Assembly: GCA_038891035.1 (NCBI GenBank)
Contig: JAWAEW010000004.1
Span: forward strand, 4,728-68,727
Reading direction: 5' to 3'
Source of the DNA: Candidatus Anstonellaceae archaeon
GTDB taxonomy: Archaea > Micrarchaeota > Micrarchaeia > Anstonellales > Anstonellaceae
Length of the DNA: 64,000 bases
This document shows, one piece after another, positions 4,607 to 59,195 of this stretch. The notes under the pieces are model-generated. The model was not told the origin of the DNA and did not search any database. It saw only the letters and a program-made list of their open reading frames with translations. Both the position numbers and the translations under genes were made by a program. The first letter of the stretch is position 1; each line of letters opens with the position of its first letter.

Positions 4607-4630
4607 GGCAAACTTCAGTTGCCTCTCTTC
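4607..4630 (+). repeat. 3' strand of the 23S rRNA processing helix
   Basis: ggcaaacttcagttgcctctcttc is the perfect complement of 1654-1677. It overlaps the stop codon and last five codons of the convergent CDS 4615-9075. Confidence 0.85.
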
Positions 4631-7600
4631 TTGCTTTCTTCTTCTAACTTTTTCCAAGTTTCTTCTGTCCTTCTTTCAAGAGAGGGTCTCCACAGCTCAT
4701 TTCTTCTTTTTTCCAATTCATCTTTGATTTGTTGGCTGTGCGCATCTCTTTTCTCTTCCTTTATGCTGTTTATTTCCAATTTGAGAAATTCAATATTTTG
4801 TTCTATTTTAAGCTTTATTTTTTCAGCATCCTTTCTTTCATGTACAAACACATCAGTAACAGTTTTATAATCCGTCAGAAATGGGCTCCTTCCAACCCAA
4901 TACTGTGAAGTCTCAGCAAGCCTCTCATTTTCGTATGGTGTCCCTTTTCCAAAAATCAAATCTTTTTCACTCGGGGCAGTGTAAAGCTCATATTCTGCGT
5001 CTTTGACAATATCTATCAGTTTCGATATTCTGTTATAGTTTTGCGGAGTAGCGGCTCGAAGCTCTGAAGAAAGAGTGCCAACCACATTTTTCAACTCAGC
5101 TGCTTGCTGGGAAACTGCAGAAGAATACATTCCCTTCTTCATTCCTTCTTCAATATTTTTTTGAATAATTGAAAGCATCTCCTCATCATTCCTTTTCATA
5201 TTTTTCTCCCATATCTTCTCTTTTTCATCAACAGACATCTTTTTGTAGTCTTCCCACAAAATAGATTTATCCTCTTCTCCGTAAAGGCTGATGGTTGGCG
5301 GAATGCTTACCTTGCTGGTCAAAATAGCATTCTGCTTCTCAGCAAAACTCGTGTAAGGCCGAAGGTCTGATTTAAGTGCTTCCATGCTGTTTCGCATCTC
5401 TGTATTAAGAAGAATCAAGTCTTTGAACGGGTCCCAGCTTTTCTTATCCTCCCCCGGAACTTCTACTTGCTTTGTGACTTCTCTTGTTGCAGAAACAGTA
5501 ATTGCATAATCATTACCATATAGTGTCTGTCTTATCATGCTTGTTTTTGCATTCCTGAATGTGAAATAAATATTGTTCTCTTTGTACTCTTCCTTATTCA
5601 ATAAGTTTCGCAGATTCGTTTCATTTGTTTTAGATATGCCAATTGTTTTAACTTTACCTTCATCAACAAGAATTTGAATGTCCTTTATCTCATTTTTTAT
5701 CGTATCAAAGCTTATTTTTCCTTCATCCATCATTTTAATTAGATCTTGTCCGGTTTTTGCGATAAAATCAGGCCGCTCGATTTTTACCTTTGCACCCTCA
5801 TTCTCATAAATTTTGATTTGGTCATTTTCCTTAACTGCGACGTAAACCTTCCCTTCTTCCAATTGTACTCCGTCAAAAGTTTTTTCGCGCCCAGTAAAAA
5901 CAACCACTTTTCCACTGTTCAATATTTCGTTTACATTAAGTATTTTCATTTCACTTTCATCTTTTTTCTTATATTTTTCATAATACTTACTGATATCTAA
6001 CATTCTTTCAAGTCCATTCTGTGTGACAATCCCCACTTCTTTTCCTTTTATTTCATTGTTTAGTCCAGCATTATTTGCAACTTCAGTCATAAGAGCAAAG
6101 GAAAGAAGAAGATTATATTTCCATCCAAATGTTGCGCCATAATGTTCAGTTGGAACGCTTATCTTTATTACCACCTCTTTATTGTTGCTATCCTCTGCAG
6201 CATTTTTTATTTCAGTAAAAAGACCCGCATTTCTTGTACTTTCTACAAATTCTTTGATTTCTTTAGGATTTCTCAGAGTTGAAATATATTCACGTAGAAC
6301 ACTTTTAATTTCACTCGTAAAGGTTTCCGTTTTCGTTTCTAATTTCTTTTCCGCTCCCCCTCCTGTTTCTTTATAATGAATGGCATCAGCAACCAAACTT
6401 AAAGCTTCATTCAGATTTTTCTTTTGGTCTTCAAATTCTTGCTTTTGTTTATCTGACATATTTTCTACAAGTGAATCCACCCACATTATCCAATTTGAAT
6501 TCATTGCAATTTTTCCAATCTCACCCATTATTTTTTCAGCTTTTTCAACATTAATTTCTTGCCCGTATTTTTCTCTTAAATATGTGGTGGCATTGTAATA
6601 TTTAGAAAATTCTTCAGAATTTACTATGCCTTTTCGCATCTTCAAAGCAATTTCATAATCACAGTCTGCCAAATATACCATATTCTCTGCATATCTTTTT
6701 AGGTCATCAATCCACCCACTTAGTTTTTCACTCTCAATTAGATTTTTTGCCTCATTGAGCTGTTCTTGGCTGGCACCATATATCTTTTCTAGTAAAGAAA
6801 GCTCAAATTTAAGCTGCTCGACTTGCTCAGGATTATTTTTCATCTTTTCTTCATATTCAGCCTTAGCTTGCTCCAAAGCCTTTTTCCTCCCATCTTCGTT
6901 TATCTCCTGCGCTTTTGAAATATGATGTTCTAAGAATTTCATTCTCTGACCTACTTCAAGAAGATAAGCAACGCTTTCCACTCTTTCTTTTGCAGTCCTT
7001 TCAACAACAAATGCCGTTTTTATATCTTCGGCATTTCCTTGTCTGAGAGCCTTATAAGTGTCATGAAGGCTTTCTACATAGGCTGCCATAGCAGCAAGCA
7101 TTCTCTCGTCTGCGCCACCAATTGACAGTTTTGTGAAAATAGCCTGATTGTAGCGCCACCTGTTCTTTTGAAATTGGGCAACTTCTTTGTTGTCAGAAGA
7201 AAGAATAAGCTTATTCCCGCTGGCATCATATAACAAAAATCCTTCCTTACCACGTTTGTCCTTTTCCAATTGTTCGATTTCCTCTATCTTTCCATTCTTG
7301 TCAATCAATAGCCCTTTACCTCCTCTGGTTTCGATATACAAACATTCTTTTCCGTTCTTCTCAACAATATTTCCATATATGATAACCGTATCTTTACCTT
7401 TAGAATAAAGCACAGTCTCTACTTCAGCATTTATAAGTTGAATCGCATTTTGAAAGATATTCAACCCCAATGGAAGCCGCGCAGGCTCATTTATATATGC
7501 TGCAATAAGAAATGCATCCTTACCTATCAGATTTTCTATTTTCTTCACCAATTTTTCAATAAAATCTTCACTTCTGCTCTTATTCCTAAATGCCAGCCAC

Positions 7601-9075
7601 TCAAGAAAAATAGTAAAAAGTGTCTTTCTCCATTCATCAGATGAAAATGCTTTCAAATTTAACGATTCTCTCAAACCAAAAAGAAGTGCAGCTGCAACTC
7701 TTTTCAAAACTCCTGCGTTTTCACCTGCCCCAATAGATTCCATGAACTCTTTCATATCCTTTTCTAGTCTGTTAACTCTTTTTTGTTCTTCAGAACTGAG
7801 GCCCGTGAAAAAAAGTCGCACCGCTTCAAATATATCAGTTGCAGTTAAAGCTACAATTCCTGGCTTAGGGGGCAGTCGTTCGTCATCTTTGCTTCGTGTT
7901 TTTGATGGACCCTCACTTCCCTCTTTACCCTTACCTCCAACTTCAACTACTTGCTGCCTTTGAAGGGAATGTACTAAATTTTTATTTTGTAGTTTATTTT
8001 TTGAGTTTTCAATTTTTTTCTCCAATTCAACGATCCTTCCCTCTACTTTCTGTATTGTTGAATTCAGCTTTCCAAGGCTTCCTTTCAAATCATTTAGCTC
8101 TTTCTTTTCATTATTGGTCAGATTTTGTTTGCTTTCAAGCTCTCGAATCCTATTTTCAACTTTATTTTTCGTATTTTGGAGTTCAGAAAGAGTTTTTTTG
8201 CCTTCGTCCAACTTAATCTGTGTTTTGTTTAATTTTTCTGCATCGGTCAACCCGCCAGCTGCAAAGTACAAATACTGAGAACTTGTTTGCAAAAATTCCA
8301 TAGCCTTAGCAAGTACCTTTCCTATAAGCATGTTCAGCTGCCCAGTTATGCTGATTTTACCCCCACTGAACGTATCAGCCATCTTGTCGAAGCCGATTAT
8401 ATATTGGATTATATCAAAGCTTTTTTGCTGAACTCTCATTGAGTATTGTCTGCCTCTTCCCATTCGCGGAGCAGAAAAATCAAAGAAAGAAAATGGATTT
8501 CTTCCTGCTGCAAATGACGCCCCAAGAAGAAGAGAAAAAATCAGCATGAGAGGCCAGCAAAGAGGAGCCATATCCACAGAAGGCGTATTGCATATGTAAA
8601 ATTCGTTGTGAGAAGGCAAGTAGTTCAAATACTGAAGTGGTACCTTTCTCGTGCCGCATGGTGGAACAGCGGTATAGGTTTGAGGAATTGAGCTTAATCC
8701 GCTTTTGTTTAAGCATTCTTTCGTGTTTGCATCAACAGGACAAAAAATATACCAATAATCAATACATCTTTGGGCATTCGGATTGTATTCGTGTACAACT
8801 TTCCCTTCACTATCTGTCACATCATAGCATACACTAGGGTTAGTAGGCGGATCATTTTGCATTCCAGATAAGTTCACACGATACACAAGCGCATTTTGGA
8901 TTGGCATCTTGTCATAGTTTCCGCTTATATTGTAGACTTTGACAATTATCTTTCCATATGTTTCATCCACTACTATATCCATGTATGAAGGTGTTGGTGT
9001 GGGAGGGCAAATAGGAGAAGAGGTTGCAAAAGCAACCATTGCAACCAATAAAAGCCCAACAAACGCTCTCATCAC
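4615..9075 (-). CDS. giant (1486 aa) membrane-anchored coiled-coil protein; last gene of the envelope operon
   Basis: The N-terminal signal-like segment is MMRAFVGLLLVAMVAFATSS. It is followed by a roughly 150-aa Cys-containing ectodomain, then one TM at about aa 172-190 (LCWPLMLIFSLLLGASFAA) and a basic stretch (GRNPF..RMGRGRQ). About 1280 aa of K/E/N-rich, heptad-like sequence follows. No family recognised. Confidence 0.85.
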   Translation of the reverse strand: MMRAFVGLLLVAMVAFATSSPICPPTPTPSYMDIVVDETYGKIIVKVYNISGNYDKMPIQNALVYRVNLSGMQNDPPTNPSVCYDVTDSEGKVVHEYNPNAQRCIDYWYIFCPVDANTKECLNKSGLSSIPQTYTAVPPCGTRKVPLQYLNYLPSHNEFYICNTPSVDMAPLCWPLMLIFSLLLGASFAAGRNPFSFFDFSAPRMGRGRQYSMRVQQKSFDIIQYIIGFDKMADTFSGGKISITGQLNMLIGKVLAKAMEFLQTSSQYLYFAAGGLTDAEKLNKTQIKLDEGKKTLSELQNTKNKVENRIRELESKQNLTNNEKKELNDLKGSLGKLNSTIQKVEGRIVELEKKIENSKNKLQNKNLVHSLQRQQVVEVGGKGKEGSEGPSKTRSKDDERLPPKPGIVALTATDIFEAVRLFFTGLSSEEQKRVNRLEKDMKEFMESIGAGENAGVLKRVAAALLFGLRESLNLKAFSSDEWRKTLFTIFLEWLAFRNKSRSEDFIEKLVKKIENLIGKDAFLIAAYINEPARLPLGLNIFQNAIQLINAEVETVLYSKGKDTVIIYGNIVEKNGKECLYIETRGGKGLLIDKNGKIEEIEQLEKDKRGKEGFLLYDASGNKLILSSDNKEVAQFQKNRWRYNQAIFTKLSIGGADERMLAAMAAYVESLHDTYKALRQGNAEDIKTAFVVERTAKERVESVAYLLEVGQRMKFLEHHISKAQEINEDGRKKALEQAKAEYEEKMKNNPEQVEQLKFELSLLEKIYGASQEQLNEAKNLIESEKLSGWIDDLKRYAENMVYLADCDYEIALKMRKGIVNSEEFSKYYNATTYLREKYGQEINVEKAEKIMGEIGKIAMNSNWIMWVDSLVENMSDKQKQEFEDQKKNLNEALSLVADAIHYKETGGGAEKKLETKTETFTSEIKSVLREYISTLRNPKEIKEFVESTRNAGLFTEIKNAAEDSNNKEVVIKISVPTEHYGATFGWKYNLLLSFALMTEVANNAGLNNEIKGKEVGIVTQNGLERMLDISKYYEKYKKKDESEMKILNVNEILNSGKVVVFTGREKTFDGVQLEEGKVYVAVKENDQIKIYENEGAKVKIERPDFIAKTGQDLIKMMDEGKISFDTIKNEIKDIQILVDEGKVKTIGISKTNETNLRNLLNKEEYKENNIYFTFRNAKTSMIRQTLYGNDYAITVSATREVTKQVEVPGEDKKSWDPFKDLILLNTEMRNSMEALKSDLRPYTSFAEKQNAILTSKVSIPPTISLYGEEDKSILWEDYKKMSVDEKEKIWEKNMKRNDEEMLSIIQKNIEEGMKKGMYSSAVSQQAAELKNVVGTLSSELRAATPQNYNRISKLIDIVKDAEYELYTAPSEKDLIFGKGTPYENERLAETSQYWVGRSPFLTDYKTVTDVFVHERKDAEKIKLKIEQNIEFLKLEINSIKEEKRDAHSQQIKDELEKRRNELWRPSLERRTEETWKKLEEESKKRGN

Positions 9076-17407: not shown

Positions 17408-20400
17408 ATTATCCTACTCAGGCCAGGTATATCAATATCTCCCCCTAAGGTGGAGGATAATACCCTTACAAACGAAATTATCATAACAATAGAAAATAGT
17501 GGAAGAACAACCGCAGGAATCATCAAAACTCCAATATTTCTTACATCAACTGCCCCTGTTGCAGAGCCAGGCAATGAAAGCAGCAATTCATCTACACTTG
17601 CTGCCTCAGATGTAAGATCTTCTTGGCTACACACTTCAGCGCAATCAGTGCGCAAGGGTGGTTCATAAAGGCAATCATACGGGCAATCAAAGCATCCGTC
17701 ACAGATACGGGCTGGGACAGGCGACAAAGCACAACTTTGTTGCTGAGACGAACAGCTCACATAATTGCAATAGATTTCAGGCATAGGGTCTTGGTTGAGT
17801 CTCCTGCAGAGTACTGGGCAATCAAAATAAGGTAAAGAAGTTGGAATATAGCTTCTGCATTCTTGTGGTCCCCCTGACCTTTTGAGTGGAATGTCTACTC
17901 TACATTCGTTAGGGCAAGCGGCAAGGCTGCAGTCAACTTGTAAAGTCTTTATCTCCATATCCTTTATCCGCCAATTTTCTGGACACTGTTTGCATGAATC
18001 TATTTCGTTAAACGGATACTCTCGCTGTCCTATAGGTATGCGAACACTGCCTTTGTTTAACCATTCGCATTCTGTTCCTCTTGAGCGGCAATCTTCTTCT
18101 GAAGAAGCACCACCACACTCCCCGCTTGAGAAGTAATTTGATGTGTTATAACAACCCCACTCACCAATTAAGTCACGGTTTCCTAAATATTCACTACATA
18201 CTAATCCAGTTGCAGGGGGGATCTTTACTTTGCAAGAATCAGAGCAATTTTCAGATGCGCATCCCAAACTGCTGCACCATAAAGCAAGCAATCCACTCCT
18301 AGAATACCCATATTTGTCAGTTCCCTCAAATTTTATCCGGCATTCAATAGGACATTTGCGGCACTGCCCCATTTCTCCAGAGGCAAAGTCATAATCTTGA
18401 CATTCTGGATTGGTTTGGCTATTCGGAACTTGGATCACTCGTTTGCATGCATCACTGCAAGAAGAACAGTCTATAGTTTCTCCGTTTCTTTCAGCATAAA
18501 AGTTTGAGTTAAAAGCTGGCGGCCCAAAGTAATCAATATCCCCAGAAGAATTTTTATGTAAAAGCAGAATTCTTACTTCCTCTGGGCAATTCCTACAATA
18601 TTCTGCTTGTCTATCAAACATATTTGATATCCTGCAGGTGGGTGGAAACTTCTGAGGTCTGCATTGGTTTTGGCATGCAGACGCGGAGCAGTTAACTCCT
18701 TCGGCTGCGCATTCCACTGGAATCCCGCCTTCACGCTCAACTGCAGAATATTCGGTTATGAACGAATAATCGTTGAATCTGCACATTTCAGGACAATCTG
18801 TGCAATTTGTAGATATGTAATTTTTCTGAGGATAAGGATAGCATGCGGGAGTTTCATCAAAAAGAGGATTTGAAGGAATTTGGATTCTGCATTCCATTGG
18901 GCATTTGCTGCAGGCTTCTCTTATTTGCTGATTGTTGCTGCAATAATTTTGCATGAAGTTTTGAATGTCGTATTTATCAAGCTGGCTGCTCCAGTTTACT
19001 CTGCATGGTTTTGGGCAGGACCCGCATACAGATGGGCTTTCACAATCAAAGGTTTCGCCTATCTTGCTTACATAAGAGCATTCCAGCGGACATCTGTTGC
19101 ATGCATCGTTTGGAGCCTCTTTACAAAGTTTTTCATCTTTTCTTACAAGCTCCACACTACCGTCAGGATTCACTTTTTTAAGAAGACACCAATTTGGGCA
19201 GTCTTTGCATACAGTGCAATCTACTGTCAACTTTGCAGCTACTGCATTCCCATCAGATTTGACATAGCATTTGTTTTCAAATGGAATGCTGGCTTTGCAT
19301 CCTTCCTGACAAAGGCTGGTCGGGCATTTTGAAGCACAATCGGTTCTAATTCTCATTACTTTACATCCAGGATTGCACTGGGCACAAGCTACAGGGTCGC
19401 ATTTTGGCTTATTTCTTGGAAATGGAACCTCTCTGCATTCTTGGGGGCAACCGCTACAATCATTCTGAATACCATCCAACTCTTCACAAGCAACCAAGCC
19501 AGGAAATTCAGCTTTTCCATCTCCATTTATGTCCCCTGTCGCCCAATTGGTTGCATTTATGCCTGCACGCTTCAAATCTTCTTTCGTTTTGAAGAGTATC
19601 AGCCCTCCAGTTGTATTGTTTATATAAAATGCAACAGGTGGAGAAAGTTTGCACTCAGCAGGGCAATTTTCAGAGTCCTGCCCAACGCGCTCACCGTACA
19701 CACTGATTTGGAGAGTGTACCAAGCAAACGCATATGTTAAAGGATAAACTACGAATATCGAGATTCCTATCGCAAGCAATAGCCCACCTAATCTTCTTGA
19801 AAAGAAAAAGGTGCGAAGCAATATCCCTAAAAGTAGAAGTATCGGGGCAAGCGCAAAGGCAACCACATCTATAAAGTAGCGCTGTGCGTATATGCTTGCA
19901 AGCATCCTGGTTGCGTTCTCAAAAATTATTCCTGCCCTTTCTGCTTCAATTGACCGACCTGCATTTGGCCGGATAATCACGCCGGCATAAGCCATTAGGG
20001 CTATATTTGCAACTGTATTTACACCAAGGTTGGCAGCTTTTTGTTCTTTTATGCTTTTTTTCAGCGCATCCTGAGCATAGGTTGAACCTATCTTGTAAAT
20101 GCTGTCAAGATAAGTTTTGGCAGCAGTGATATAGCAAGGTTCTGCGCCACTACAAACTATAGGAAGATTGCTTGAAGCCACAACTGCACTTGAAATCTGG
20201 TCAAGGAAAATTATCACTCCGATTATGCTCAAAACTAATATTGCTGAAACAAATGCCTGTCCAAGTTCAATATCCACAAATGCCTTTATTTCATTTAAAT
20301 TGAATGCATAGCCAACCATCGCAGCAATCGCAATTAGAAGGATTGCAATCATCACTCCTGTCAACGCAGAAACCTTCCAATCTGAAAACCATCCAGCCTG

Positions 20401-20715
20401 ATATATCCCGCTTGTTTGCCCAATAGCACTTCCTTTTGTCCTGTTCCCTTCTTCAAGGGCAGTTATCATCTTGGTGATATTCTTCTGAGGTAGATAAGGC
20501 ACAGATGGCTGATATACATATTCCCATTCAGAAGGGAAAAGCTCACAAATAAGTGATGGTGGCTGGGTACATTTTCCTGAAGCCAAATCGCATATTAGAG
20601 GCGAAACGCAATCTGAATTCTGGTTGCATGGCTGTGCATATGAACTTGCAGCAGAAATTGCCGGCAAAACCAAAATGAAAATCAACAATTGCTTCATCAT
20701 ATCACTACACTGCAA
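17404..20715 (-). CDS. paralog 3 (1103 aa): polytopic membrane core with a ~680-aa CxxCPxxC-repeat insertion before the last TM
   Basis: Family motifs are AMVGYAFNLNEIKAFVDIELGQ, LAPILLLLGILLRTFFFSRRLGGLLLAIGISIFVVYP, and the tail TLGGDIDIPGLSRII. The Cys-rich insertion spans aa 351-1029. An alternative start, MMKQLL at 20700, would give a cleaner signal peptide. Confidence 0.85.
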   Translation of the reverse strand: MQCSDMMKQLLIFILVLPAISAASSYAQPCNQNSDCVSPLICDLASGKCTQPPSLICELFPSEWEYVYQPSVPYLPQKNITKMITALEEGNRTKGSAIGQTSGIYQAGWFSDWKVSALTGVMIAILLIAIAAMVGYAFNLNEIKAFVDIELGQAFVSAILVLSIIGVIIFLDQISSAVVASSNLPIVCSGAEPCYITAAKTYLDSIYKIGSTYAQDALKKSIKEQKAANLGVNTVANIALMAYAGVIIRPNAGRSIEAERAGIIFENATRMLASIYAQRYFIDVVAFALAPILLLLGILLRTFFFSRRLGGLLLAIGISIFVVYPLTYAFAWYTLQISVYGERVGQDSENCPAECKLSPPVAFYINNTTGGLILFKTKEDLKRAGINATNWATGDINGDGKAEFPGLVACEELDGIQNDCSGCPQECREVPFPRNKPKCDPVACAQCNPGCKVMRIRTDCASKCPTSLCQEGCKASIPFENKCYVKSDGNAVAAKLTVDCTVCKDCPNWCLLKKVNPDGSVELVRKDEKLCKEAPNDACNRCPLECSYVSKIGETFDCESPSVCGSCPKPCRVNWSSQLDKYDIQNFMQNYCSNNQQIREACSKCPMECRIQIPSNPLFDETPACYPYPQKNYISTNCTDCPEMCRFNDYSFITEYSAVEREGGIPVECAAEGVNCSASACQNQCRPQKFPPTCRISNMFDRQAEYCRNCPEEVRILLLHKNSSGDIDYFGPPAFNSNFYAERNGETIDCSSCSDACKRVIQVPNSQTNPECQDYDFASGEMGQCRKCPIECRIKFEGTDKYGYSRSGLLALWCSSLGCASENCSDSCKVKIPPATGLVCSEYLGNRDLIGEWGCYNTSNYFSSGECGGASSEEDCRSRGTECEWLNKGSVRIPIGQREYPFNEIDSCKQCPENWRIKDMEIKTLQVDCSLAACPNECRVDIPLKRSGGPQECRSYIPTSLPYFDCPVLCRRLNQDPMPEIYCNYVSCSSQQQSCALSPVPARICDGCFDCPYDCLYEPPLRTDCAEVCSQEDLTSEAASVDELLLSLPGSATGAVDVRNIGVLMIPAVVLPLFSIVMIISFVRVLSSTLGGDIDIPGLSRII

Positions 20716-21628
20716 TTGTCCTTAAAGCTTTAGAGATAGCATTCACACATGTTATCAGCACCACCAACACAAGATTTGGGATGAAAATTGCCTGCGGTAA
20801 AGTGGAGGAGAGCCGATAAAGAAGACTATCTTTGCCAGTTCCATCTCCAAAAGCTTGTCTGTCTTCAAACGAATGTCCTGCAATCTGATATGGATTTTGC
20901 ATGATTTTCGCATATGTATACGCGCTTAAAGCATAAACCGAAGGAACAATTATGTATAGCCCGAAAAAAAGCGCAATCAAAATATTGCCATATTCGCGAG
21001 TCATTGGAAATATCCTCATGACAAACGCAAATGGCAAAAGCACAGCAGCACCTACAAACTCCACCATTGAAAGGAGATATTTTTGTGCATTTAGGCTTGC
21101 GATTATCGGAATATAAAGATCTATTAGAAATTCTTTATGTGATGAAATTGCTCTCCACGCGGCCATATGCGCCATTCCATAACCTTGATAAGGAGTAAAT
21201 CCTACGAAAAGATAAGCAGTTGCATCAAGCTGATTGCCATAGCTGGAATAGACTAGCTCTCGCACTATCGCAAGCCCATTATTTACAAGCAAAGAATTTA
21301 TGTACGCATATGAAGCTTCGAATGGGCTTTTGCCGATGTATTCCACTGCCAAGCGGCAAGACCCTGTGAAAAATGCAAGCAAGCCGACAAGCAGTATAAC
21401 GGTAACTAGCAAATTCTGCGATTCATCCTTTGCATATGTTTCAGCCTTTATATTGTGCGCAAGCTTGCCATACATGTAAGCAATGCTTATCACAAGAGAT
21501 GCAAGCGCAAGTGCATAACCTATGAATGGGAGAGCATCAGGATGGAAATTGCTTATCTCACATACATCTGCATAATCGGCTGCAGCAACAGCAGGCACAA
21601 GCAATGCTACAATAAAAACAACATTCAT
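20705..21628 (-). CDS. paralog 2 (307 aa) of the polytopic membrane family (most divergent, tail motif degenerate)
   Basis: Has YMYGKLAHNIKAETYAKDESQ and LLPFAFVMRIFPMTREYGNILIALFFGLYIIVP. The C-terminus AISKALRTIAV lacks the LGGD motif. Confidence 0.8.
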   Translation of the reverse strand: MNVVFIVALLVPAVAAADYADVCEISNFHPDALPFIGYALALASLVISIAYMYGKLAHNIKAETYAKDESQNLLVTVILLVGLLAFFTGSCRLAVEYIGKSPFEASYAYINSLLVNNGLAIVRELVYSSYGNQLDATAYLFVGFTPYQGYGMAHMAAWRAISSHKEFLIDLYIPIIASLNAQKYLLSMVEFVGAAVLLPFAFVMRIFPMTREYGNILIALFFGLYIIVPSVYALSAYTYAKIMQNPYQIAGHSFEDRQAFGDGTGKDSLLYRLSSTLPQAIFIPNLVLVVLITCVNAISKALRTIAV

Positions 21629-21630: not shown

Positions 21631-22911
21631 TTACACCAATTTGCTTAAGCCATAAAGCTGCGGCTCTCCTCCAAAATAAATTATGAAATTCCTTGCTGCA
21701 ACCACCCCTATTATTATGGGAAGCAAGGAGAAAACTAAAGCAAGCACTCCATAAATGCTTGTTGCTGGAAGAGCATACTCTGTTACGTTGGCTATGGCTG
21801 CATCAATATCAACATAACTATAAAGTGAAAGAAAGGGATACATCATCATGCTAAAGCCTGCCTTTGCAATAGCAAATACATTCCTTACATCGGCCCAGCA
21901 TTGAGTTAGTGGATAACCTGTAGTCACCTGAAGCACAGGGCATATCAACAAAGCCCATCCGTTTTCCCCACTTAGAATAACCCCTCCAAATCCCCCAACC
22001 AAGCTTCCGATCGACCCACCAACACTGGAAGATATAGCAGACACCACAACTCCAAGAGGGCTTTGGATGAAGGATTGCATTACAGGGTCACATACAAAAT
22101 TTGTAAGTGGTGGATTTCTAATGTCTGGCAACACATTAATCCCTTCTATGTATTGTACAATCTGCGGGGAAAAAGTGGCATAGATTTCATGAGAAATTGC
22201 AAACGAGGCAGGATAAATCACAGAAGCCGCAATTGAAGCCCCTAAAATAGTCCCACCTATCTTTCTTGTGAGTGAAAAGCACCGCAAAAAGATACCCACG
22301 GGCAAAAAGATTGCGGCAGTATTGACAAAGAAGATTACAAATGATTTTTGCGCAGACAAAAACAAGAGATAGTTTGCAATTCCATCCATTGCAAAGCCTA
22401 ATTCTGCAATCAATGGTGCAAATCCTGCACCAGGGGTCTGAGTAAAGCTTGTGCTTACTAAATGGAGATTCAACCCGGCAGTATAAGTATATGAAGCATA
22501 TCTTGCGACATTGAAATAAGCTGTCGCAAGCTTAAGATAAAGGGCCCTTCCATCCTCTCTTATTTTTGCAATGGCATCCAAGGCGTACTGCCCTGCACCC
22601 ATCTGTTTGCCTGAAAGAAAACTTGCCGCAGCATCCGCACTTGCAATCATTCCAACACAAAATACTGCAATCAGAACTCCTGCGAAAAGTTCCTGAAGCT
22701 CTACTTTGGTCCATGCTTCAAGCAGCCTAAGCTCAAAAAAAGAACCTACCATATATGTGATCCCAATAAACGAAGCCGCAATAAGCACTGAAAGTCCAGT
22801 CCAATAGTAAACCTCTGCCTGCCACCCAGAAGCGCTTGCAAAATTTGCCAATATAAGCAAAGAAGCCGCAATTTTTGCCAAACTAGGCAGCAGCCTTTGC
22901 ATATTCGTCAT
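21631..22911 (-). CDS. paralog 1 (426 aa) of the polytopic membrane family; first gene of the operon
   Basis: Has YMVGSFFELRLLEAWTKVELQ, FLPVGIFLRCFSLTRKIGGTILGASIAASVIYP, and the tail YFGGEPQLYGLSKLV. The alternative ATG at 22902 (MQRLLPS..) lies about 28 nt from the TATA-like box and may be a leaderless start. Confidence 0.8.
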   Translation of the reverse strand: MTNMQRLLPSLAKIAASLLILANFASASGWQAEVYYWTGLSVLIAASFIGITYMVGSFFELRLLEAWTKVELQELFAGVLIAVFCVGMIASADAAASFLSGKQMGAGQYALDAIAKIREDGRALYLKLATAYFNVARYASYTYTAGLNLHLVSTSFTQTPGAGFAPLIAELGFAMDGIANYLLFLSAQKSFVIFFVNTAAIFLPVGIFLRCFSLTRKIGGTILGASIAASVIYPASFAISHEIYATFSPQIVQYIEGINVLPDIRNPPLTNFVCDPVMQSFIQSPLGVVVSAISSSVGGSIGSLVGGFGGVILSGENGWALLICPVLQVTTGYPLTQCWADVRNVFAIAKAGFSMMMYPFLSLYSYVDIDAAIANVTEYALPATSIYGVLALVFSLLPIIIGVVAARNFIIYFGGEPQLYGLSKLV

Positions 22912-24680: not shown

Positions 24681-24996
24681 GCCCAATGCGAATATAAACA
24701 GGATTCTTCTTGCAATTGCAGCTCAAACATTTCTGATTTGTGCTTCATTGCTGCTTTTTTTTGTCTATATCAAAATGCCGATTGTTTCTGCAAGCGCTGC
24801 AAGCTTAGTAGTTTTAGTTACAGGCTCGATACTTTGCTGGAAAAGCCTGCTTGCATCAAAGCTTATTCTTCTTTTGTCTTTACTTGGTATCGAGGCAGTC
24901 GCACTCTCTTTTGAGCCTGAGCTTTTCTTGCCTTCAATTGGGCTGAATATAATTGCAGCGGTCCTTCTTTTTGTTCCGCGGCACTGGTGGGAATAA
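24670..24996 (+). CDS. small hydrophobic protein (108 aa, about 3 TM), uncertain
   Basis: The translation is plausibly membrane-embedded. Its last 134 nt overlap the convergent ORF 24863-25618. Confidence 0.35.
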   Translation: MNVEPNANINRILLAIAAQTFLICASLLLFFVYIKMPIVSASAASLVVLVTGSILCWKSLLASKLILLLSLLGIEAVALSFEPELFLPSIGLNIIAAVLLFVPRHWWE

Positions 24997-25618
24997 GCTG
25001 AGAAAGAAGAAACAATTTTTTCCCTTCCTGCTGTGCCTCAAGAGATGCAGGCAATAGGTGGCAGTTTTTTGGAAATTCATAGCTGTATTTCCAAACTGCG
25101 CCTGCTTTCAAAAAAGGAATCTCTACTAAAATTGATGACTTTGCGTGCATGCACACAGGGTCAACTATTTTTATTTTATCCAAACTTTTTCCGGCAACCA
25201 CCACAAGCTGCACTTTTCCACCCTCAATTTCTTTGTAAAATTTGGTCTCTGCAAGAAAAGACCTTGAAATGTAGAATGCAGCAGCAGCCATGATAGCAAC
25301 AAAAAGCAAGGAAAATCCAAATGCTACAAGGCCCAACTGCTCATTGGCAGTCTGAAGCTCAACTTTTGCATCAGGCAATTCAATCTTTGCTTCATGCATC
25401 AGGCCTCCACACTCAAATACGTAATCTCCTCCAATTTTTGGGTAAAAGCTCCCTTCGCCATACTGGTCCAGCTCAACAAAATGCAGCCCATCTGGGCCTG
25501 CAACTGAAACCTTGGATTGACCAGGGCAAAATATGCTTACCTTGCCTTCTTTAACCTGGCCTACTTGAAAGGAAAAAGTCAAGCACGCAACCATGAGTGC
25601 AATCAAGAGGTGCTTCAT
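24863..25618 (-). CDS. hypothetical secreted/membrane protein (251 aa)
   Basis: Signal peptide MKHLLIALMVACLTFSF and a central TM LGLVAFGFSLLFVAIMAAAAFYI. No recognisable domain. Confidence 0.55.
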   Translation of the reverse strand: MKHLLIALMVACLTFSFQVGQVKEGKVSIFCPGQSKVSVAGPDGLHFVELDQYGEGSFYPKIGGDYVFECGGLMHEAKIELPDAKVELQTANEQLGLVAFGFSLLFVAIMAAAAFYISRSFLAETKFYKEIEGGKVQLVVVAGKSLDKIKIVDPVCMHAKSSILVEIPFLKAGAVWKYSYEFPKNCHLLPASLEAQQEGKKLFLLSQLIPTSAAEQKEGPLQLYSAQLKARKAQAQKRVRLPRYQVKTKEE

Positions 25619-25622: not shown

Positions 25623-25754
25623 CGGGCCCGACGGGAGTTTCAGCCAAACCTTTGGCTTTTGAACCCGCAGCCTTCTGGTGGCACCTGCCACACCCAGCCC
25701 ATTTGCCGGGCGCATTCGAAGCCAGACGCGCTATCCAGGTTGCGCCACAGGCCC
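25623..25754 (-). tRNA. tRNA-Arg (anticodon UCG) with two putative introns (36 nt at 37/38 and 21 nt in the T-loop)
   Basis: Minus-strand sense is GGGCCUG-UG-GCGC-AACCUGGAUA-GCGC-G-UCUGG-CUUCGA[36 nt]A-CCAGA-AGGCU-GCGGG-UUCAAA[21 nt]U-CCCGU-CGGGCCC-G. The acceptor pairs at 7/7 positions including one G-U. On the + strand the introns lie at about 25680-25715 and 25637-25657. A TATA-like box sits at 25777-25786. Confidence 0.8.
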
Positions 25755-28693: not shown

Positions 28694-29670
28694 AGCACCT
28701 TTATTGTATTGCCTTCAATTATAATATTTCTTCCTGTCATCTGCTCAATTACATAACGGTTTGTCAAAAGGTGCTGGGTTGCCTGCGCAGCTGAAAAGCT
28801 GCTTTTCCCCTCTGCCAAAGCGGCATAAAGTAGAAGCTGGTCTGCAAGATGCCAATCCACACATGCATTGCCTTTGTACTGTTGCTCAAACTCTCTGCAC
28901 ACCTCCAAAGCCACCTCCTCAGCCATCTTTCCCTTTTTTCCTATTGAGCAGCTTCCGATAAACCCTTTCCACATAGTAACTGCATTGCCGGCACAATCTG
29001 CTGCAACCTGCATTATTTTTCCCGAAGGGGAAAGGTAGCCCAGTTGCTTCCTAATAATTGCCTGCTCTCTTTCTGCAACGTGTGGAGGAAGCCCAAAATA
29101 AACTATCTCATATCTTAATGGCTCTTCAACCTTCTGCATTATGCAGCCGTGAAGCTTGGAAGGCAGGGTTTTCAGATGAATCTTACCCCCACCAGTTGGA
29201 TAAAAGCCTGCTTTTTTAAGCTGAATTTCAAATTTTGCACCAAACATGGAGGCAGCTTTTGCAAAAATCTCTGCCAAATACTCAAAAGTTGGGGCACCCT
29301 GCACATGAGTCCCACCAATAACTTCTAAGGTGCATTCTTCCTCAGCATGCAAAAGAACAGGAAGCGCAGCTTGCACAAGAAGGGAGCATGATCCCGCAGT
29401 GCCAATCTCTACCTTAAAGCTTCCTGAAGCTATCTTCCCTGGAATAAATTCAAGATATTTGGAGCCTATTTCTGCTCCTTTTATTTTTGCTCTACAAACT
29501 TTTGCAAGCAGGTTGCATGCTGCCAGATGTTGATAGGAAAGGCCAGGATTTTTTCTGCCTGCACGTATGTTTGTTATTTTAATTGGTGTGCCTAAAATGC
29601 AAGATATCGAAAGTGCAGTCCGAAGCACCTGGCCTCCGCCTTCTCCATAAGAGCCGTCTATTTCAATCAC
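28690..29670 (-). CDS. rtcA: RNA 3'-terminal phosphate cyclase
   Basis: MIEIDGSYGEGGGQVLRTALSIS..ITNIRAGRKNPGL..HL.. matches the RtcA N-terminal signature. Confidence 0.9.
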   Translation of the reverse strand: MIEIDGSYGEGGGQVLRTALSISCILGTPIKITNIRAGRKNPGLSYQHLAACNLLAKVCRAKIKGAEIGSKYLEFIPGKIASGSFKVEIGTAGSCSLLVQAALPVLLHAEEECTLEVIGGTHVQGAPTFEYLAEIFAKAASMFGAKFEIQLKKAGFYPTGGGKIHLKTLPSKLHGCIMQKVEEPLRYEIVYFGLPPHVAEREQAIIRKQLGYLSPSGKIMQVAADCAGNAVTMWKGFIGSCSIGKKGKMAEEVALEVCREFEQQYKGNACVDWHLADQLLLYAALAEGKSSFSAAQATQHLLTNRYVIEQMTGRNIIIEGNTIKVL

Positions 29671-30914
29671 ATTTTGATTTTCCCAAGAAGGACTTTTATT
29701 TCATATACTAGACCAAAAAGCACAAGCAAAACTAGCCCGCCAACTGCTGCAAATCCTTCAACCCTCCATTTTCCTTTTGCTGCAGGATATGCGGCAGGTG
29801 ACACAGAATCATTCCCAAAGCGAATGCTGACCGCCTTTCTGTTTTGATCGTCTTGGAAGGGCGCAGGTTCACGCACAGAAATCGTGCTTTCAAATGCAAA
29901 CATATCAGAAAATAGACTTTCATACAAAACAACTGCTTTCTTTTTGCCCACCTCTTGCTTGATTGAGGCAGATGCTTCCATGACCAGATAAGCTGCAGGA
30001 AGATCAACCAGCTGGCTTGCATACATTTCAGACAAATTCACCAAGCTCATATTTTGCCCATAAAATACTGGCCTGGCCTCAAGCTCGGCCTGTTTGCATC
30101 TGCCTTGCTTGTAATCAATTTCATAAGCAGTAAAATTTGCGACAGTCTTGCCATTTATCATAAATGCAACAGAGGCAGGCATCCTCCTTGCAAAAAATAA
30201 CCATTCAAGCTGCTGGCTTGCATTAGTCATTTTTTGCAATGGCGGGTTTACCCAAAACCACTCTACAGGGCCGGTTTCGACCCAAATTTCCTTTTCATCT
30301 GAATGCCGCTTGCGGTATGTTAGCACCCCATCAGTAGAATGCGCCTTGCAAATGCAGGTCGAAGGGCACTCAAAGAAGTATTCAAGTTTTAAGTATCTAT
30401 ATTCCGCCTCTATCGCCCCTGAAAGGTGCAATCTGAGCGGCTCGAAAATCATACTCTGCAAATGCATCGGCCTGCCCAGTTCAAGCTGGACAGGGTTTGG
30501 ACCAGCCATCCCAAGAATTGCCTGTCTGGTTTGGTTTCCATATTCATAAAAAAGCACCCCGTCAGAAAATCTTGGCTGCCCCTCTGCCCAAAGGTGTAGC
30601 TTGCCAGCAGGGCAACCTTCCGAAGAAGGAATTTCAAATTCTGCATATGTGGGATAATGTGCAAACCAGCTCCAGAGTACCTTTGGCCGATGCAAGTCTG
30701 AGGTAAGATTGCCTATCTGAGGCATAACTGCAACTATTTTTACTCCAGAAATATACGAAAGATCTTGTGGGGTCGGGCTTTTTTCAGGCAACATGCAAGG
30801 GTTTTCTGCACCAAGAAGGGTTTCTGCTATTTGAAGATTTTGCTTTTCTGCCTCCTGGATTGGGTGAAGGCAAAAGCCCAAACCAACCAAAACAAAAAAT
30901 GCCCAGGTTTTCAT
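29667..30914 (-). CDS. hypothetical secreted protein with C-terminal TM anchor (415 aa)
   Basis: Signal peptide MKTWAFFVLVGLGFCL and C-terminal TM AAVGGLVLLVLFGLVY. ATGA-coupled on both sides. Confidence 0.7.
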   Translation of the reverse strand: MKTWAFFVLVGLGFCLHPIQEAEKQNLQIAETLLGAENPCMLPEKSPTPQDLSYISGVKIVAVMPQIGNLTSDLHRPKVLWSWFAHYPTYAEFEIPSSEGCPAGKLHLWAEGQPRFSDGVLFYEYGNQTRQAILGMAGPNPVQLELGRPMHLQSMIFEPLRLHLSGAIEAEYRYLKLEYFFECPSTCICKAHSTDGVLTYRKRHSDEKEIWVETGPVEWFWVNPPLQKMTNASQQLEWLFFARRMPASVAFMINGKTVANFTAYEIDYKQGRCKQAELEARPVFYGQNMSLVNLSEMYASQLVDLPAAYLVMEASASIKQEVGKKKAVVLYESLFSDMFAFESTISVREPAPFQDDQNRKAVSIRFGNDSVSPAAYPAAKGKWRVEGFAAVGGLVLLVLFGLVYEIKVLLGKIKM

Positions 30915-32797
30915 TTCAGCACTTTTTGGATTTCCTTTTTGTCCGGGGCCATCAAAAATAGCTTCCTGTTTTGGATTGCAATTTTTATAAGTACGTCTTG
31001 TTCTGTATTTTGCCTAAGGCTTTCAAGAAAGTCTTCCTTTTGCTTGGCACTTTCAAACAGCACTGCCCTCCTTCGCTTGCCTAGTCCAACAAGGACCTTC
31101 TCCTTCCCTTCAAAAAGCACAATCTCCACTCCACCAACCAAATTCCTTTTCCTTGAGAATCTAAGTCCGTTTTCTAGCATTGCATCATGCAATATTCGCA
31201 ATGCATGAAGCTGCCCACAAGTTAGCTTTCTCAGGATTTTTGCTGGGGCATACGCTTGTTCGTAGTTGGACATTTTGCCTTTTCGAACGAGGGTCTCAAG
31301 TACCTCATTTAGGCTGTGCTGGTCTATTGCAACTTTCTTTTTGGCAGCAAGTGCAGCTGCAAGCTCTTCAGGATAGACGGTAAGAAGGTGGCCTCCATTT
31401 TTTCGGTCAGCTTCATAGTAAGCCTCTTCCATTTCTTTCCATCTAACAGAAACCATTGCAGGAGGAAGCCGAGCAGTTTCAGGAAAGACTATCCTATATT
31501 TGATTTTTCTGTTTGCCCGCAGAAGCAAGTAAGCCCCTACAACCAATGCAATTGCAGGGAGTGCATATTTTGCATAGCTTTCAAAAAATCCTCTTGGCTC
31601 TATTTTGTATTCCAAGGTTGCCTTTGCGCCCTGGTATTCAAAGTTTATTGTCTGCGTAGGCTTGGAAGGATTTGCAAGCACAACTACCTTTCCAAAAGAT
31701 GAATAAACCTGCTTTTTTTGCCCATCATCTAACCATGCAAAGACAGCCCCCTCAACAGGCCTTCCTCCAAAAGTAAGTTCAAATTCATGTCTATTTCCTT
31801 TCACTCCAATCGGCCTTGCGCTCAGCCCAACTACCTGCACATAAGCAGATGCCTTAAGGTTGCCAAACTGGTCTTCCACTTTTATGATGGCAGGCCCGCT
31901 TGTGCTGAGATTGACTGAAAATAGCCCTACCCAGCTTTCACCATAAGCCACTCCTATATCCTGCTTTCCAACCAGCCTCCTTCCTGAGAATATCTTTGCC
32001 TCAAGCTGCGCCCTCCTTTCATTTTCCAGTTCCAGCTCAAATTGTGCCTGCTGGCCAGCCACCACTTCATTTGGACCTTTCAGCCTCCCTTCAGGAGGAT
32101 AAAGTTTGCCAGTATCAATCACCCGGCATTGCTGTCCGATATGAACTATTCTGCAATATGCTGGTGTGAAATTTACAGGGTAGCTAATAATTGAATTCCT
32201 TCCAGAAAATAGTTTGGCATTCTCGTCCAAAAGCGCTTTTTTTGCTGCTTCCTGCGCTGCTTCTGTTTCCTTTCCGAGGTAAAGCCGCACTAATTCAAAT
32301 TCAGACCAGTTTTCTATTTGGATTATTTTACCATACTGGTCTATAGCCTTGCCTTCAAGAGCAATTATGCTGACTACTTTGCTTTGGTTAGCTTCATAAA
32401 GCTCAAGTGGAATTGCACCTGAGGCAGAAATCACTATTGCATTTTCCATTTTGGCAGCATCCTGGGGATATGCAAAAAGTGCAGAAATCCCGCATCTTTC
32501 AAGTTGTCTTCGGACTGCCTGCGCCAAGTCCTTGTTTATCCCTGGCAAAGGGTTGCTGGAAAGAACCACAAACTTGTTTGGAAATGGGCGATCTTTGCAT
32601 TCAATCCAGCTGTCGCCTTCTTCTTGCATAATGTGAGCAAGCACTATTCTTTGCCCACCTCCCCAATCTACAATCTCTGCACCATAAAATGCAAAACCAG
32701 GCAAAGCTTCCTGCTTTCGAGTCTCTTTTTGCTGTCCACCGATTTGCAAAATGAGAATCAGTGCGATTATTGCTACTGCAAAAATGGCATACCTCAT
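30911..32797 (-). CDS. hypothetical two-TM envelope protein (about 628 aa)
   Basis: The ORF track begins at 32812. The ATG at 32797 (MRYAIFAVAIIALILIL..) forms an ATGA overlap with the cysS stop. A second TM lies near aa 425 and the C-terminal cytoplasmic part is basic. Confidence 0.7.
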   Translation of the reverse strand: MRYAIFAVAIIALILILQIGGQQKETRKQEALPGFAFYGAEIVDWGGGQRIVLAHIMQEEGDSWIECKDRPFPNKFVVLSSNPLPGINKDLAQAVRRQLERCGISALFAYPQDAAKMENAIVISASGAIPLELYEANQSKVVSIIALEGKAIDQYGKIIQIENWSEFELVRLYLGKETEAAQEAAKKALLDENAKLFSGRNSIISYPVNFTPAYCRIVHIGQQCRVIDTGKLYPPEGRLKGPNEVVAGQQAQFELELENERRAQLEAKIFSGRRLVGKQDIGVAYGESWVGLFSVNLSTSGPAIIKVEDQFGNLKASAYVQVVGLSARPIGVKGNRHEFELTFGGRPVEGAVFAWLDDGQKKQVYSSFGKVVVLANPSKPTQTINFEYQGAKATLEYKIEPRGFFESYAKYALPAIALVVGAYLLLRANRKIKYRIVFPETARLPPAMVSVRWKEMEEAYYEADRKNGGHLLTVYPEELAAALAAKKKVAIDQHSLNEVLETLVRKGKMSNYEQAYAPAKILRKLTCGQLHALRILHDAMLENGLRFSRKRNLVGGVEIVLFEGKEKVLVGLGKRRRAVLFESAKQKEDFLESLRQNTEQDVLIKIAIQNRKLFLMAPDKKEIQKVLK

Positions 32798-34188
32798 GTT
32801 GCCACTTTCCATACAGTGATTCCATCTTTTCGATCTTCGATTAAAATTCCCTTTTCCTGCAGGCTTCTCCTTATGGAATCTGCTAATGCAAAATCCTTCC
32901 TTTTGCGGGCTTCATCACGCTGGCGAAGGAGCCTTTCAATCTCTTCTGCAGGTATGGGAAGCCTGCTTTCTTTTGGCTGCAAGCCCAGCACCCCAAGCAG
33001 CTTTTCCAGAGTGGCTGCTGCAGATAATGCATCCATTTTGCCTGCAGTGGAATCTGAGCAGGCCGCATTTATTTTCCTTGCAAGCATGAAAAGCGCTGCC
33101 ATTGCATTTGGAGTATCAAAATCATCATCCATATGCTCTACAAATTTGCGCTCAGTCTCAAGTGCGGCTTCAGAAAGTCTTGCAGTGCCGGTTGGCGGAA
33201 GGGGGTAAGATTTTGCAGAGCGGATTGCCTGATGCAAATTTTCAAGGGAGTTGGAAGCAGACAAAATTGCCTGTCGCGAGAAGTCAATCGGACTTCTGTA
33301 ATGGGTGAGCGCAAAAAACATCCTTATTGCTTGTGGGCCGAACTCTGCCAGCGCATCCTGAATAGTGATAAAATTGCCCAATGATTTTGCCATTTTTTCT
33401 CCATTTACCGTGAGAAAGCCAGTATGAAGCCAATATCTTACAAATTTTTTTCCAGTTGCAGCCTCGGATTGGGCTATTTCATTTTCATGGTGAGGAAAAA
33501 CCAAATCTCGAGCGCCGCCATGAATATCCAAGGTTTCGCCCAAGCAGGAGATGCTCATCGCTGAGCATTCTATATGCCAGCCAGGCCTTCCAGCCCCCCA
33601 CGGAGAATCAAAAGTGGCCCCTTTTTCCTGTCCAAATTTCCAAAGTGCAAAATCTTGGGGATTCCTTTTTTCCTCATCAATTTCAACCCTCGCGCCTGCC
33701 TTTATCTGTTCCATATTCTGCCCAGAAAGAGAGCCATAGCCTTCAAACTTCATCACATCAAAATACACTCCAGAGGAAGTCTGATAGGCAAAGCCATTTT
33801 GCATTATCTTTTCTATCAGTGAAATTATCTGCGGAATATACTGGCTTACTTTTGGGGAGAAGTCTGGCTTTTTTATTCCCAGAGCTTCAAATTCTTGCTC
33901 AGATTGCGAATTGAACATAAAGGCAAGCTCAAGAGGCGCCATCCCCATTTCCTTTGCGCGGTTTATTATTTTGTCATCTATATCAGTTACGTTTTGCACG
34001 TAAGTGACTTTATACCCCCTAAACTCAAGGTATCTTCTTATGTTGTCAAAAGCTACCAGCGTCCTTGCATGCCCAAGATGGCTTCTATCGTACGGCGTAA
34101 TACCACAAACATACATTTTTACCTTATTTTTTTCTTGTGGAACAAACTCTTCCTTAGATTTCGTCAAAGTGTTGTATATCCTCACCAA
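32794..34188 (-). CDS. cysS: cysteinyl-tRNA synthetase
   Basis: HIGH-type motif (SHLGHAR), KMSKS-type motif (KMAKSLGN), and WHIECS zinc site. Confidence 0.95.
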   Translation of the reverse strand: MVRIYNTLTKSKEEFVPQEKNKVKMYVCGITPYDRSHLGHARTLVAFDNIRRYLEFRGYKVTYVQNVTDIDDKIINRAKEMGMAPLELAFMFNSQSEQEFEALGIKKPDFSPKVSQYIPQIISLIEKIMQNGFAYQTSSGVYFDVMKFEGYGSLSGQNMEQIKAGARVEIDEEKRNPQDFALWKFGQEKGATFDSPWGAGRPGWHIECSAMSISCLGETLDIHGGARDLVFPHHENEIAQSEAATGKKFVRYWLHTGFLTVNGEKMAKSLGNFITIQDALAEFGPQAIRMFFALTHYRSPIDFSRQAILSASNSLENLHQAIRSAKSYPLPPTGTARLSEAALETERKFVEHMDDDFDTPNAMAALFMLARKINAACSDSTAGKMDALSAAATLEKLLGVLGLQPKESRLPIPAEEIERLLRQRDEARKRKDFALADSIRRSLQEKGILIEDRKDGITVWKVAT

Positions 34189-35998: not shown

Positions 35999-36029
35999 AC
36001 TGGTCGCTGCTTTTATTTTTGTGTCAAGA

Positions 36030-36038
36030 TTTATATAA
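36030..36038 (+). promoter_or_regulatory. TATA box for the A+T-rich three-gene block
   Basis: tttatataa is centred about 28 nt upstream of the ATG at 36062, a spacing typical of leaderless archaeal transcripts. Confidence 0.5.
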
Positions 36039-36061
36039 TTGATTTTTCACGAAATACACTT

Positions 36062-40084: not shown

Positions 40085-40125
40085 ATATTGATTGAAATAT
40101 TGAATAAATGTGAAGAGGTGTTCAT

Positions 40126-42666: not shown

Positions 42667-42667
42667 A

Positions 42668-59152: not shown

Positions 59153-59195
<43 letters not shown>

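Follow-up and report, generated by a model that had tools for sequence, protein, structure and literature searches.

A stretch of 64,000 nucleotides from the genome of a Micrarchaeota (DPANN) archaeon, referred to as the window, contains a gene whose product carries a very long cysteine-rich segment built on a short motif, which raises the question of what this segment is and what its cysteines are for. The archaeal nature of the window was seen from its 23S ribosomal RNA (rRNA) gene at 1677-4609 on the plus strand and its 16S rRNA gene at 58570-60183 on the minus strand. The gene in question, an open reading frame (ORF) of 1103 residues at 17404-20715 on the minus strand, is the third of an eight-gene operon and encodes the third of six paralogs (paralog 3); translation probably begins in fact from the ATG at 20700, which would give 1098 residues, like database entry P0001. 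All features of this gene and of the operon given below lie on the minus strand. The original prediction had placed an insertion of about 680 residues at 17629-19665, and nucleotides 19665 to 17629 were found to encode exactly residues C351-C1029 of the 1103-residue protein. This segment, hereafter the insert, comprises 679 residues, among which are 75 cysteines (11%) and a single histidine. In the comparison with the closest genome, the ratio of nonsynonymous to synonymous substitution rates (dN/dS) was 0.16 for the whole protein and 0.17 for the insert, equal to that of the transmembrane (TM) core, with no cysteine substitution. A spurious ORF was rejected, and the insert is under purifying selection. 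Based on the evidence below, we consider it moderately probable that the insert is an ectodomain of tandem repeats, made rigid by disulfide staples, and that it belongs to a previously undescribed envelope complex specific to Micrarchaeota.

The motif content of the insert was compared with that of 20,000 residue shuffles of the same segment. CxxCPxxC[RK] was observed 5 times (0.01 expected), CxxCPxxC 8 times (0.07 expected), CPxxC 11 times (0.65 expected) and the loose form C[PSN]xx[CVW][RKSL] 16 times (0.66 expected). No shuffle equalled any of these counts and a chance origin of the repeat was rejected, while CxxC as such was only modestly enriched (14 vs 8.2 expected). With 3-5 additional degenerate units (CQEGCK at 469, CQNQCR at 681, CAEVCS at 1025) the total came to about 19-21, so that the 16-18 loose instances counted in the original prediction were a fair estimate. 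All the motif strings quoted there were recovered, at positions 420, 539, 564, 602, 638, 750, 785, 908 and 933; the unit described as having lost its last cysteine carries W915 where 90% of orthologs have cysteine, and the reported DINGDGK element is present at residues 395-401. Repeat detection had been chosen beforehand as the test on which the repeat should stand or fall, and significant periodicity was found. In the HHalign self-comparison of a 63-sequence insert profile, off-diagonal alignments spanning 100-450 columns were obtained with E=1.6e-25, 1.2e-19, 2.2e-18 and so on to 1e-7, compared to a best E of at least 0.2 for six column-shuffled control profiles. The repeat of the paralog 3 insert is real, and it is hierarchical, with single modules of 24-45 residues inside duplicated multi-module blocks. 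The module pattern was C-x(5-12)-C-x2-C-P-x2-C-[RK]-h-x-h-P, and about 20 such four-cysteine modules stand in tandem, in an array broken by two non-repeat subdomains.

The units were located along the insert from its N-terminal end. Unit 0, CPAECK (19648-19677), has C351, P352 and C355 invariant in 71 orthologs, and an alpha/beta subdomain outside the repeat (residues 356-419; 19459-19650) opens the insert, with a conserved FPGLVAC at its end and the DINGDGK loop, of DxNxDG type, within it (19513-19533). The units that follow are CSGCPQECR (C420/423/427; 19432-19461), CAQCNPGCK (C444/447/451; 19360-19389), the degenerate C464..CQEGCK (C469/473; 19294-19323), CTVCKDCPNWCL (C500/503/506/510; 19183-19212), CNRCPLECS (C539/542/546; 19075-19104), CGSCPKPCR (C564/567/571; 19000-19029), CSKCPMECR (C602/605/609; 18886-18915) and CTDCPEMCR (C638/641/645; 18778-18807). 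Further on were found the degenerate CSASACQNQCR (C676/681/685; 18658-18687), CRNCPEEVR with V at the third position (C707/710; 18571-18600), CSSCSDACK (C750/753/757; 18442-18471), CRKCPIECR (C785/788/792; 18337-18366) and CASENCSDSCK (C819/824/828; 18229-18258). A non-motif, cysteine-containing subdomain (residues 840-905; 18001-18198) lies inside the array, and beyond it are CKQCPENWR, with W915 for the conserved cysteine (C908/911; 17968-17997), CSLAACPNECR (C929/934/938; 17899-17928), YFDCPVLCR, with Y963 for the conserved cysteine (C966/970; 17803-17832), CDGCFDCPYDCL (C1005/1008/1011/1015; 17668-17697) and the terminal CAEVCS (C1025/C1029, 99% conserved; 17626-17655).

The operon in which the gene stands was then described. 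Eight co-directional ORFs of 426, 307, 1103, 607, 443, 368, 1355 and 1486 residues run from 22911 down to 4615, and each ORF either touches its neighbour or shares a few bases with it, with start and stop codons overlapping between adjacent genes. They encode six tandem paralogs with five TM helices each, a secreted cysteine-rich protein of 1355 residues and a membrane-anchored coiled-coil protein of 1486 residues. All six paralogs were mutually detectable by phmmer and have in common a core hairpin, R-x-F-x-x-[TS]-R-x-x-G-G...[YW]-P, and a final TM helix. In five of the six, paralog 2 being without it, the last TM helix is followed by a tail of the form LGG[DE]x[DE]...L.R[IL] (LGG[DE]x[DE]IPGLxRI), which is conserved and predicted to be cytoplasmic, and on which a partner in the cytoplasm may dock. 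Between the YP motif and the last TM helix, a distance put earlier at about 50-150 residues in the other paralogs, 44, 59, 63, 78 and 145 residues were measured in the five other paralogs, compared to 733 in paralog 3. This difference confirms that the cysteine-rich segment is inserted when the family core is taken as the reference.

The other members of the operon differ in size and extensions. Paralogs 1 (426 residues; 21631-22911) and 2 (307 residues; 20705-21628) precede the gene of interest, and paralog 6 (368 residues; 13153-14259) is close to a minimal core and was the basis of the family profile A2. Paralog 4 (607 residues; 15584-17407) has a different, N-terminal expansion at about residues 20-290, made of knottin-like cysteine-rich modules with sub-threshold Pfam matches to Conotoxin_I2 and Dickkopf_N, and paralog 5 (443 residues; 14256-15587) has a cysteine-rich N-terminal domain; both reach 900-1090 residues in other genomes, some with CARDB domains. 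The product of operon gene 7 (1355 residues; 9085-13152) is secreted or lipobox-like, with 65 cysteines and no other TM helix; the lipobox-like LALGC at its start and 21 N-x-S/T sequons were noted, so that this giant may sit at the cell surface on a lipid anchor. The product of operon gene 8 (1486 residues; 4615-9075) consists of a small N-terminal domain, predicted outside, with 8 cysteines, one TM helix and a cytoplasmic coiled coil of about 1290 residues, which is Lys/Glu-rich and gave only weak hidden Markov model (HMM) matches, SMC-related and TraP. No P-loop or Walker A motif was found in the products of genes 7 or 8.

The distribution of the family was examined in protein libraries and genomes. 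A search of 5.8 billion proteins yielded 71 orthologs of the 1103-residue protein, and all those with a name are Micrarchaeota. The relatives of paralog 6 are likewise from Micrarchaeota only. At E<=1e-3, profile A2, for the paralog 6 subfamily, retrieved 2585 cluster representatives from a library of 1.84 billion proteins, and among ten of them that were looked up, every one with an organism name was from this phylum. In the species genomes of GTDB, 111 stretches encode a relative, among which 74 distinct loci were examined, with 76 loci in total; every locus named to the level of phylum belongs to Micrarchaeota, and the closest of the 74, at 97% identity, is in a metagenome-assembled genome of Candidatus (Ca.) Anstonellaceae. 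Exactly six tandem paralogs in the same size order were present at 63 of the 76 loci, most exceptions being truncated contigs. The same operon order was found in Ca. Anstonella and a second genome, where genes 7 and 8 are syntenic too, and the flanking genes are housekeeping genes. The window locus itself has the core motif, the C-terminal TM helix, the LGG[DE]x[DE] tail and the tandem array of six that define the family.

An HMM built from 50 repeat units detected at least two units at the position-3 paralog in 47 of the 63 arrays. With this HMM no unit was found at the other positions of these arrays, in other ORFs within ±10 kb or in the rest of the window. Because the repeat is confined to paralog 3 across the 76 loci examined, the insertion is an ancient hallmark of this paralog throughout the phylum, and a recent lineage-specific insertion was rejected. 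The original prediction was thus right in describing an insertion in one paralog, but the insertion is not peculiar to the window genome. The core (233 residues) and the tail (48 residues) have fixed lengths in the 71 orthologs, and anything from 321 to 1215 residues separates them; short orthologs keep both ends of the insert and miss its middle. Some lineages, that of the window genome included, later enlarged the insert about two- to four-fold.

The topology of paralog 3 was deduced from hydropathy and from AlphaFold2 models, which agreed with each other. The protein begins with an N-terminal signal or anchor segment (residues 1-25, with a helix at 4-16; 20641-20715) and a small domain predicted outside the cell, also from cysteine parity, with 5 cysteines (residues 26-60; 20536-20640). 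The conserved core (residues 110-345; 19681-20388) follows, with the TM1-TM2 hairpin, a helical outside loop containing the conserved pair C188 and C194, and the TM3-TM4 hairpin with the cytoplasmic motif RTFFFSRRLGG...YP. Then come the insert, the last helix TM5 (residues 1056-1089; 17449-17550) and a 14-residue tail of acidic and basic residues, LGGDIDIPGLSRII (17407-17448), the tail common to five paralogs. The TM3-TM4 loop, RTFFFSRRLGG, is Arg-rich and invariant (R301, R307). This arrangement supports a placement of the TM3-TM4 loop and the C-terminal tail inside the cell and of the insert outside.

With the ortholog alignment, AlphaFold2 gave the full protein a mean predicted local distance difference test score (pLDDT) of 85.9, with most of the insert above 90, and the insert alone was modelled with a pLDDT of 91.0 and a predicted template modelling score (pTM) of 0.75. 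Because of these last two values, the model indicates a defined global arrangement of the insert rather than beads on a string. In the model each motif forms a one-turn helix over P-x-x-C, then a beta bridge after the Arg.

The use of the cysteines was assessed in the 71 orthologs, in which 75 cysteine columns of the insert are at least 70% conserved, most of them above 90%. Conserved cysteines were found to be lost in pairs. Positions 963 and 991 were lost jointly in 10 sequences (of 12 and 11 losses respectively), 420 and 447 in 5 (of 6 and 5) and 1011 and 1015 in 3 (of 4 and 3). The pairs 963/991 and 420/447 each match the first cysteine of one CxxCxxxC motif with the middle cysteine of the next, about 25 residues on, and because both join consecutive motifs, a recurring inter-module staple is suggested. 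Cysteine parity was determined in 57 complete orthologs for the segments predicted outside, namely the mature N-terminal domain, the TM2-TM3 loop and the insert. The outside total was even in 54 of the 57, with totals such as 82, 86, 90 and 94, which are not multiples of four. The N-terminal domain has an odd number of cysteines (5, 7, 9, 15, 17 or 19), the insert has an odd number as well (73-105), and the sum is even; in orthologs whose N-terminal domain is free of cysteine, the insert count was even in 9 of 10. When the whole protein was counted, membrane-embedded cysteines included, 35 orthologs were even and 22 odd, which is uninformative, so the signal is only in the outside segments. 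In the work of Mallick in 2002 and of Beeby in 2005, an even-cysteine bias reportedly served as a disulfide signature in thermophile genomics.

Since conserved cysteines are lost in pairs and the outside totals are even, the insert cysteines most likely form disulfides rather than metal sites. The two odd counts with an even sum imply that one disulfide joins the N-terminal outside domain to the insert, and such a bond would place both segments on the same side of the membrane. The extracellular location assumed earlier is supported, though indirectly, by both the predicted topology and this parity. Across the operon, the predicted outside parts contain 5-11% cysteine, compared to 2 cysteines in the cytoplasmic coiled coil of the 1486-residue protein. 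In this genome and its closest relatives, W915, Y963 and Q991 (codons 17971-17973, 17827-17829 and 17743-17745) replace conserved cysteines, the last two at paired positions. W915 leaves a partner cysteine, for which the non-conserved cysteines 506, 785 and 824 may compensate, since the outside total stays even at 82.

The insert was compared with known families. Neither the window protein nor any of eight diverse orthologs had a match above threshold in Pfam or NCBIfam, and these scans returned no EGF, furin-like, TNFR_c6, Giardia VSP, Paramecium surface-antigen or Myxococcus Cys-rich repeat. Searches of PDB sequences were empty with the whole-protein profile and, even at E<=10, with the core-family profile. 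With the insert model, Foldseek gave no match at E<=0.001 in the PDB (best E 1.8, the LRP2 ectodomain) or in BFVD (best E 0.72), and the full-length model matched only long-helix bundles (fumarase, aspartase, TTYH), none of them significantly. The earlier statement that the repeat belongs to no described family agrees with all five of these resources, and no description of this family was found in the Micrarchaeota and DPANN literature searched; a bioRxiv paper on 'CysRRep' concerns an unrelated repeat. The DINGDGK loop, which about 22 of the 71 orthologs have lost, reached only sub-threshold similarity to FG-GAP (E 0.06-0.19; FG-GAP_3 14.3 bits against a cutoff of 26.9, FG-GAP 12.1 against 22.1), and its assignment to FG-GAP or DxDxDG calcium loops was rejected at scores below the Pfam gathering cutoffs. 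A Fer4-type assignment of the insert was rejected too, since the window protein had no such Pfam match at E<=1, nor the eight orthologs at E<=0.1, and the spacing is CxxCPxxC. A zinc ribbon or Cys4 finger is unlikely, in view of the pairwise cross-module losses, totals that are not multiples of four, the single histidine and the CxxC count of 14 vs 8.2.

Taken together, the paralog 3 segment would encode a large outward-facing domain within a Micrarchaeota-specific set of six 5-TM proteins. Its disulfides would in part link neighbouring modules, from the first cysteine of one motif to the middle cysteine of the next, and one would hold the insert and the small outside domain at the N terminus together, giving a rigid, covalently stapled ectodomain. 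The insert would then most likely be the main extracellular structural element, serving as a stalk, as a shield or for surface contact, in a hetero-oligomeric complex of the envelope formed by the six paralogs, the secreted cysteine-rich 1355-residue protein and the membrane-anchored coiled-coil 1486-residue protein. A single complex is proposed because the six-paralog array is fixed, with overlapping start and stop codons, and is accompanied by a secreted giant with 65 cysteines and a membrane-anchored coiled-coil giant. Several points weigh against this explanation. The topology is derived from hydropathy, charge and cysteine logic, the assembly of the six paralogs into a complex is deduced only from fixed synteny, and the function of the insert, structural or host contact, is putative. 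The disulfide map is partial, the parity and co-loss counts come from orthologs that share phylogeny and are non-independent events, and no gene for a thiol-disulfide oxidoreductase was found within the 64-kb window.

An alternative that we regard as rather unlikely is that the insert is mainly a host-recognition adhesin, a cysteine-stapled variable surface module like the variant-specific surface proteins (VSPs) of Giardia, and not a structural scaffold. Micrarchaeota are host-dependent ectosymbionts (PMC11329633, PMC8975820), a dependence that suits an adhesin, as does the nearly four-fold range of insert length, 321-1215 residues, by module gain and loss; the ectodomains of paralogs 4 and 5 differ in size between genomes as well. 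Nevertheless, the gene is single-copy in a fixed operon with housekeeping neighbours, shows no sign of a multigene variable family, has a dN/dS in the insert as low as that of the TM core, and many of its non-cysteine residues are at least 90% conserved among orthologs. A core structural role of the stapled ectodomain is favoured because of its strong conservation and housekeeping neighbourhood, and room is left for a host-contact role because the module number is variable.

A more specific form of the envelope-complex proposal, which we offer as a long shot, is that the operon encodes an envelope-spanning machine with a hetero-hexameric ring of paralogs, a cytoplasmic coiled-coil partner and an extracellular chamber made of disulfide-stapled ectodomains, the largest of which would be the CxxCPxxCR array of paralog 3. 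This machine could be the barrel of the cultivated micrarchaeon ARM-1, in which cryo-electron tomography (cryo-ET) revealed a 21-nm barrel-shaped envelope docking platform where host nanotubes enter (PMC11329633). If so, the operon would be the symbiont-side gateway for the exchange of material with the host.

It is very improbable that the paralogs are divergent channel subunits of VirB6/CedA type, from a conjugation-like type IV secretion system (T4SS) or Ced apparatus, with the insert as an extracellular stalk or pilus base for DNA or protein transfer with a host. The match of paralog 6 to NCBIfam CedE, a VirB6-like paralog of CedA (PMC11868833), was weak, at 17.8 bits (E=0.002) where the cutoff is 400. 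At rank 36, Foldseek listed chain 8rtd_L of the R388 T4SS stalk/inner-membrane complex (E=0.92, TM-score 0.26), a putative VirB6-like chain. In Rickettsiales, too, VirB6 paralogs stand in tandem and carry large extensions, which is a further point for this alternative. On the other side, the HHalign comparison of profile A2 with VirB6 of A. tumefaciens (C58 Ti plasmid) gave a probability of 0.04%, no Pfam TrbL/VirB6 match and no PDB sequence match even at E<=10 were obtained, no VirB4/HerA-type ATPase or P-loop is encoded in the operon, its flanks are housekeeping genes and no pilin-like small genes were seen. Because of the VirB6 profile result and the lack of a P-loop protein in the operon, the six-paralog family is not filed under VirB6. 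Least probable of all is metal binding, in which each Cx2Cx3C triad and an upstream cysteine would ligate Zn or iron-sulfur (Fe-S) centres in a multi-metal array in either compartment: about four cysteines per module and a spacing loosely like that of cluster-binding motifs suit it, but the cysteines are lost in cross-module pairs (420/447, 963/991) rather than within-module fours, their totals are even without being multiples of four, an odd N-terminal domain offsets an odd insert, there is one histidine in 679 residues, no ferredoxin or zinc-finger match appeared for the window protein in Pfam or NCBIfam at E<=1, and the predicted topology puts the insert outside.

The molecules that join the reduced-genome, host-dependent Micrarchaeota to their hosts are an open problem in DPANN biology. 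Among candidates for a core machine of the cell envelope, a phylum-wide operon of more than 18 kb, with eight membrane or surface proteins, a housekeeping setting and no annotated match, is a strong one. The repeat domain is its most distinctive part, a confidently modelled and apparently new disulfide-rich fold marking exactly one subunit, and lends itself readily to targeting with antibodies, to labelling for cryo-ET and to recombinant expression. It would also be a rarity among archaeal proteins, a tandem repeat outside the cell with extensive disulfide bonding, for which pairwise loss and parity give internal evidence on how the cysteines are used.

Other features of the window were recorded outside the operon. 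The 16S and 23S rRNA genes do not form a linked unit, since 54 kb separates them and they lie on opposite strands, and the 16S match covers 1614 nt for a model of 1478 positions, which suggests that the gene carries an insertion or intron. A 237-residue ORF at 1336-2049 on the minus strand lies for the most part within the 23S rRNA gene, with which it shares 1677-2049, and is almost certainly not a real gene. At 25623-25754 on the minus strand, the Rfam match to transfer RNA (tRNA) spans 132 nt for a model of 71 positions, with no ARAGORN call, and is probably an intron-containing archaeal tRNA. The region 35720-44986 on the plus strand has a low GC content (0.33-0.38 vs about 0.43 elsewhere) and holds three large ORFs in a row (1454, 846 and 772 residues), none of them with a Pfam match. 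Its origin may be foreign, as an island, or it may be a further cluster of surface or giant proteins particular to the lineage. ORFs of 415, 633 and 251 residues without Pfam match also stand among housekeeping genes at 29667-32812 and 24863-25618 on the minus strand.

Compared to known systems, the paralogs resemble VirB6, TrbL and CedA-CedE in being polytopic with about five TM helices, in their long helices, in their tandem paralogs and in the large hydrophilic extensions of some copies, but they have no significant sequence or fold similarity to these proteins and no VirB4/VirD4-type ATPase in the operon. The ferredoxin-type 4Fe-4S motif CxxCxxCxxxCP shares with the insert clustered cysteines followed by proline and, in some proteins, many-fold repetition. 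The spacing in the insert, however, is 2/3 with the proline right after the second cysteine, not 2/2/3, its cysteines are lost pairwise, it is predicted outside the cell and it has no Pfam match. The knottin-like modules of paralogs 4 and 5 are encoded in the same operon and are also cysteine-rich and predicted outside, but they are N-terminal and follow another motif, with sub-threshold matches to Conotoxin_I2, Dickkopf_N and UPF0506, and CxxCPxxC is absent from them. There is also a likeness in layout to the CXXC repeats of Giardia VSPs and to furin-like, EGF, TNFR and LDLR-type modules, which, like the insert, have modules of 25-45 residues with about 4 cysteines each and about 11% cysteine. 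These eukaryotic repeats are likewise outward-facing, in tandem and variable in copy number, and LRP2 was the best, though non-significant, Foldseek match. The insert differs from them in having no sequence or fold match (Pfam E>1; Foldseek best E 1.8), in its signature C-x2-C-P-x2-C-R, and in being archaeal and forming a loop that connects TM4 with TM5 in a polytopic protein. It would also differ in that some of its disulfides appear to join neighbouring modules, instead of lying within a single one.

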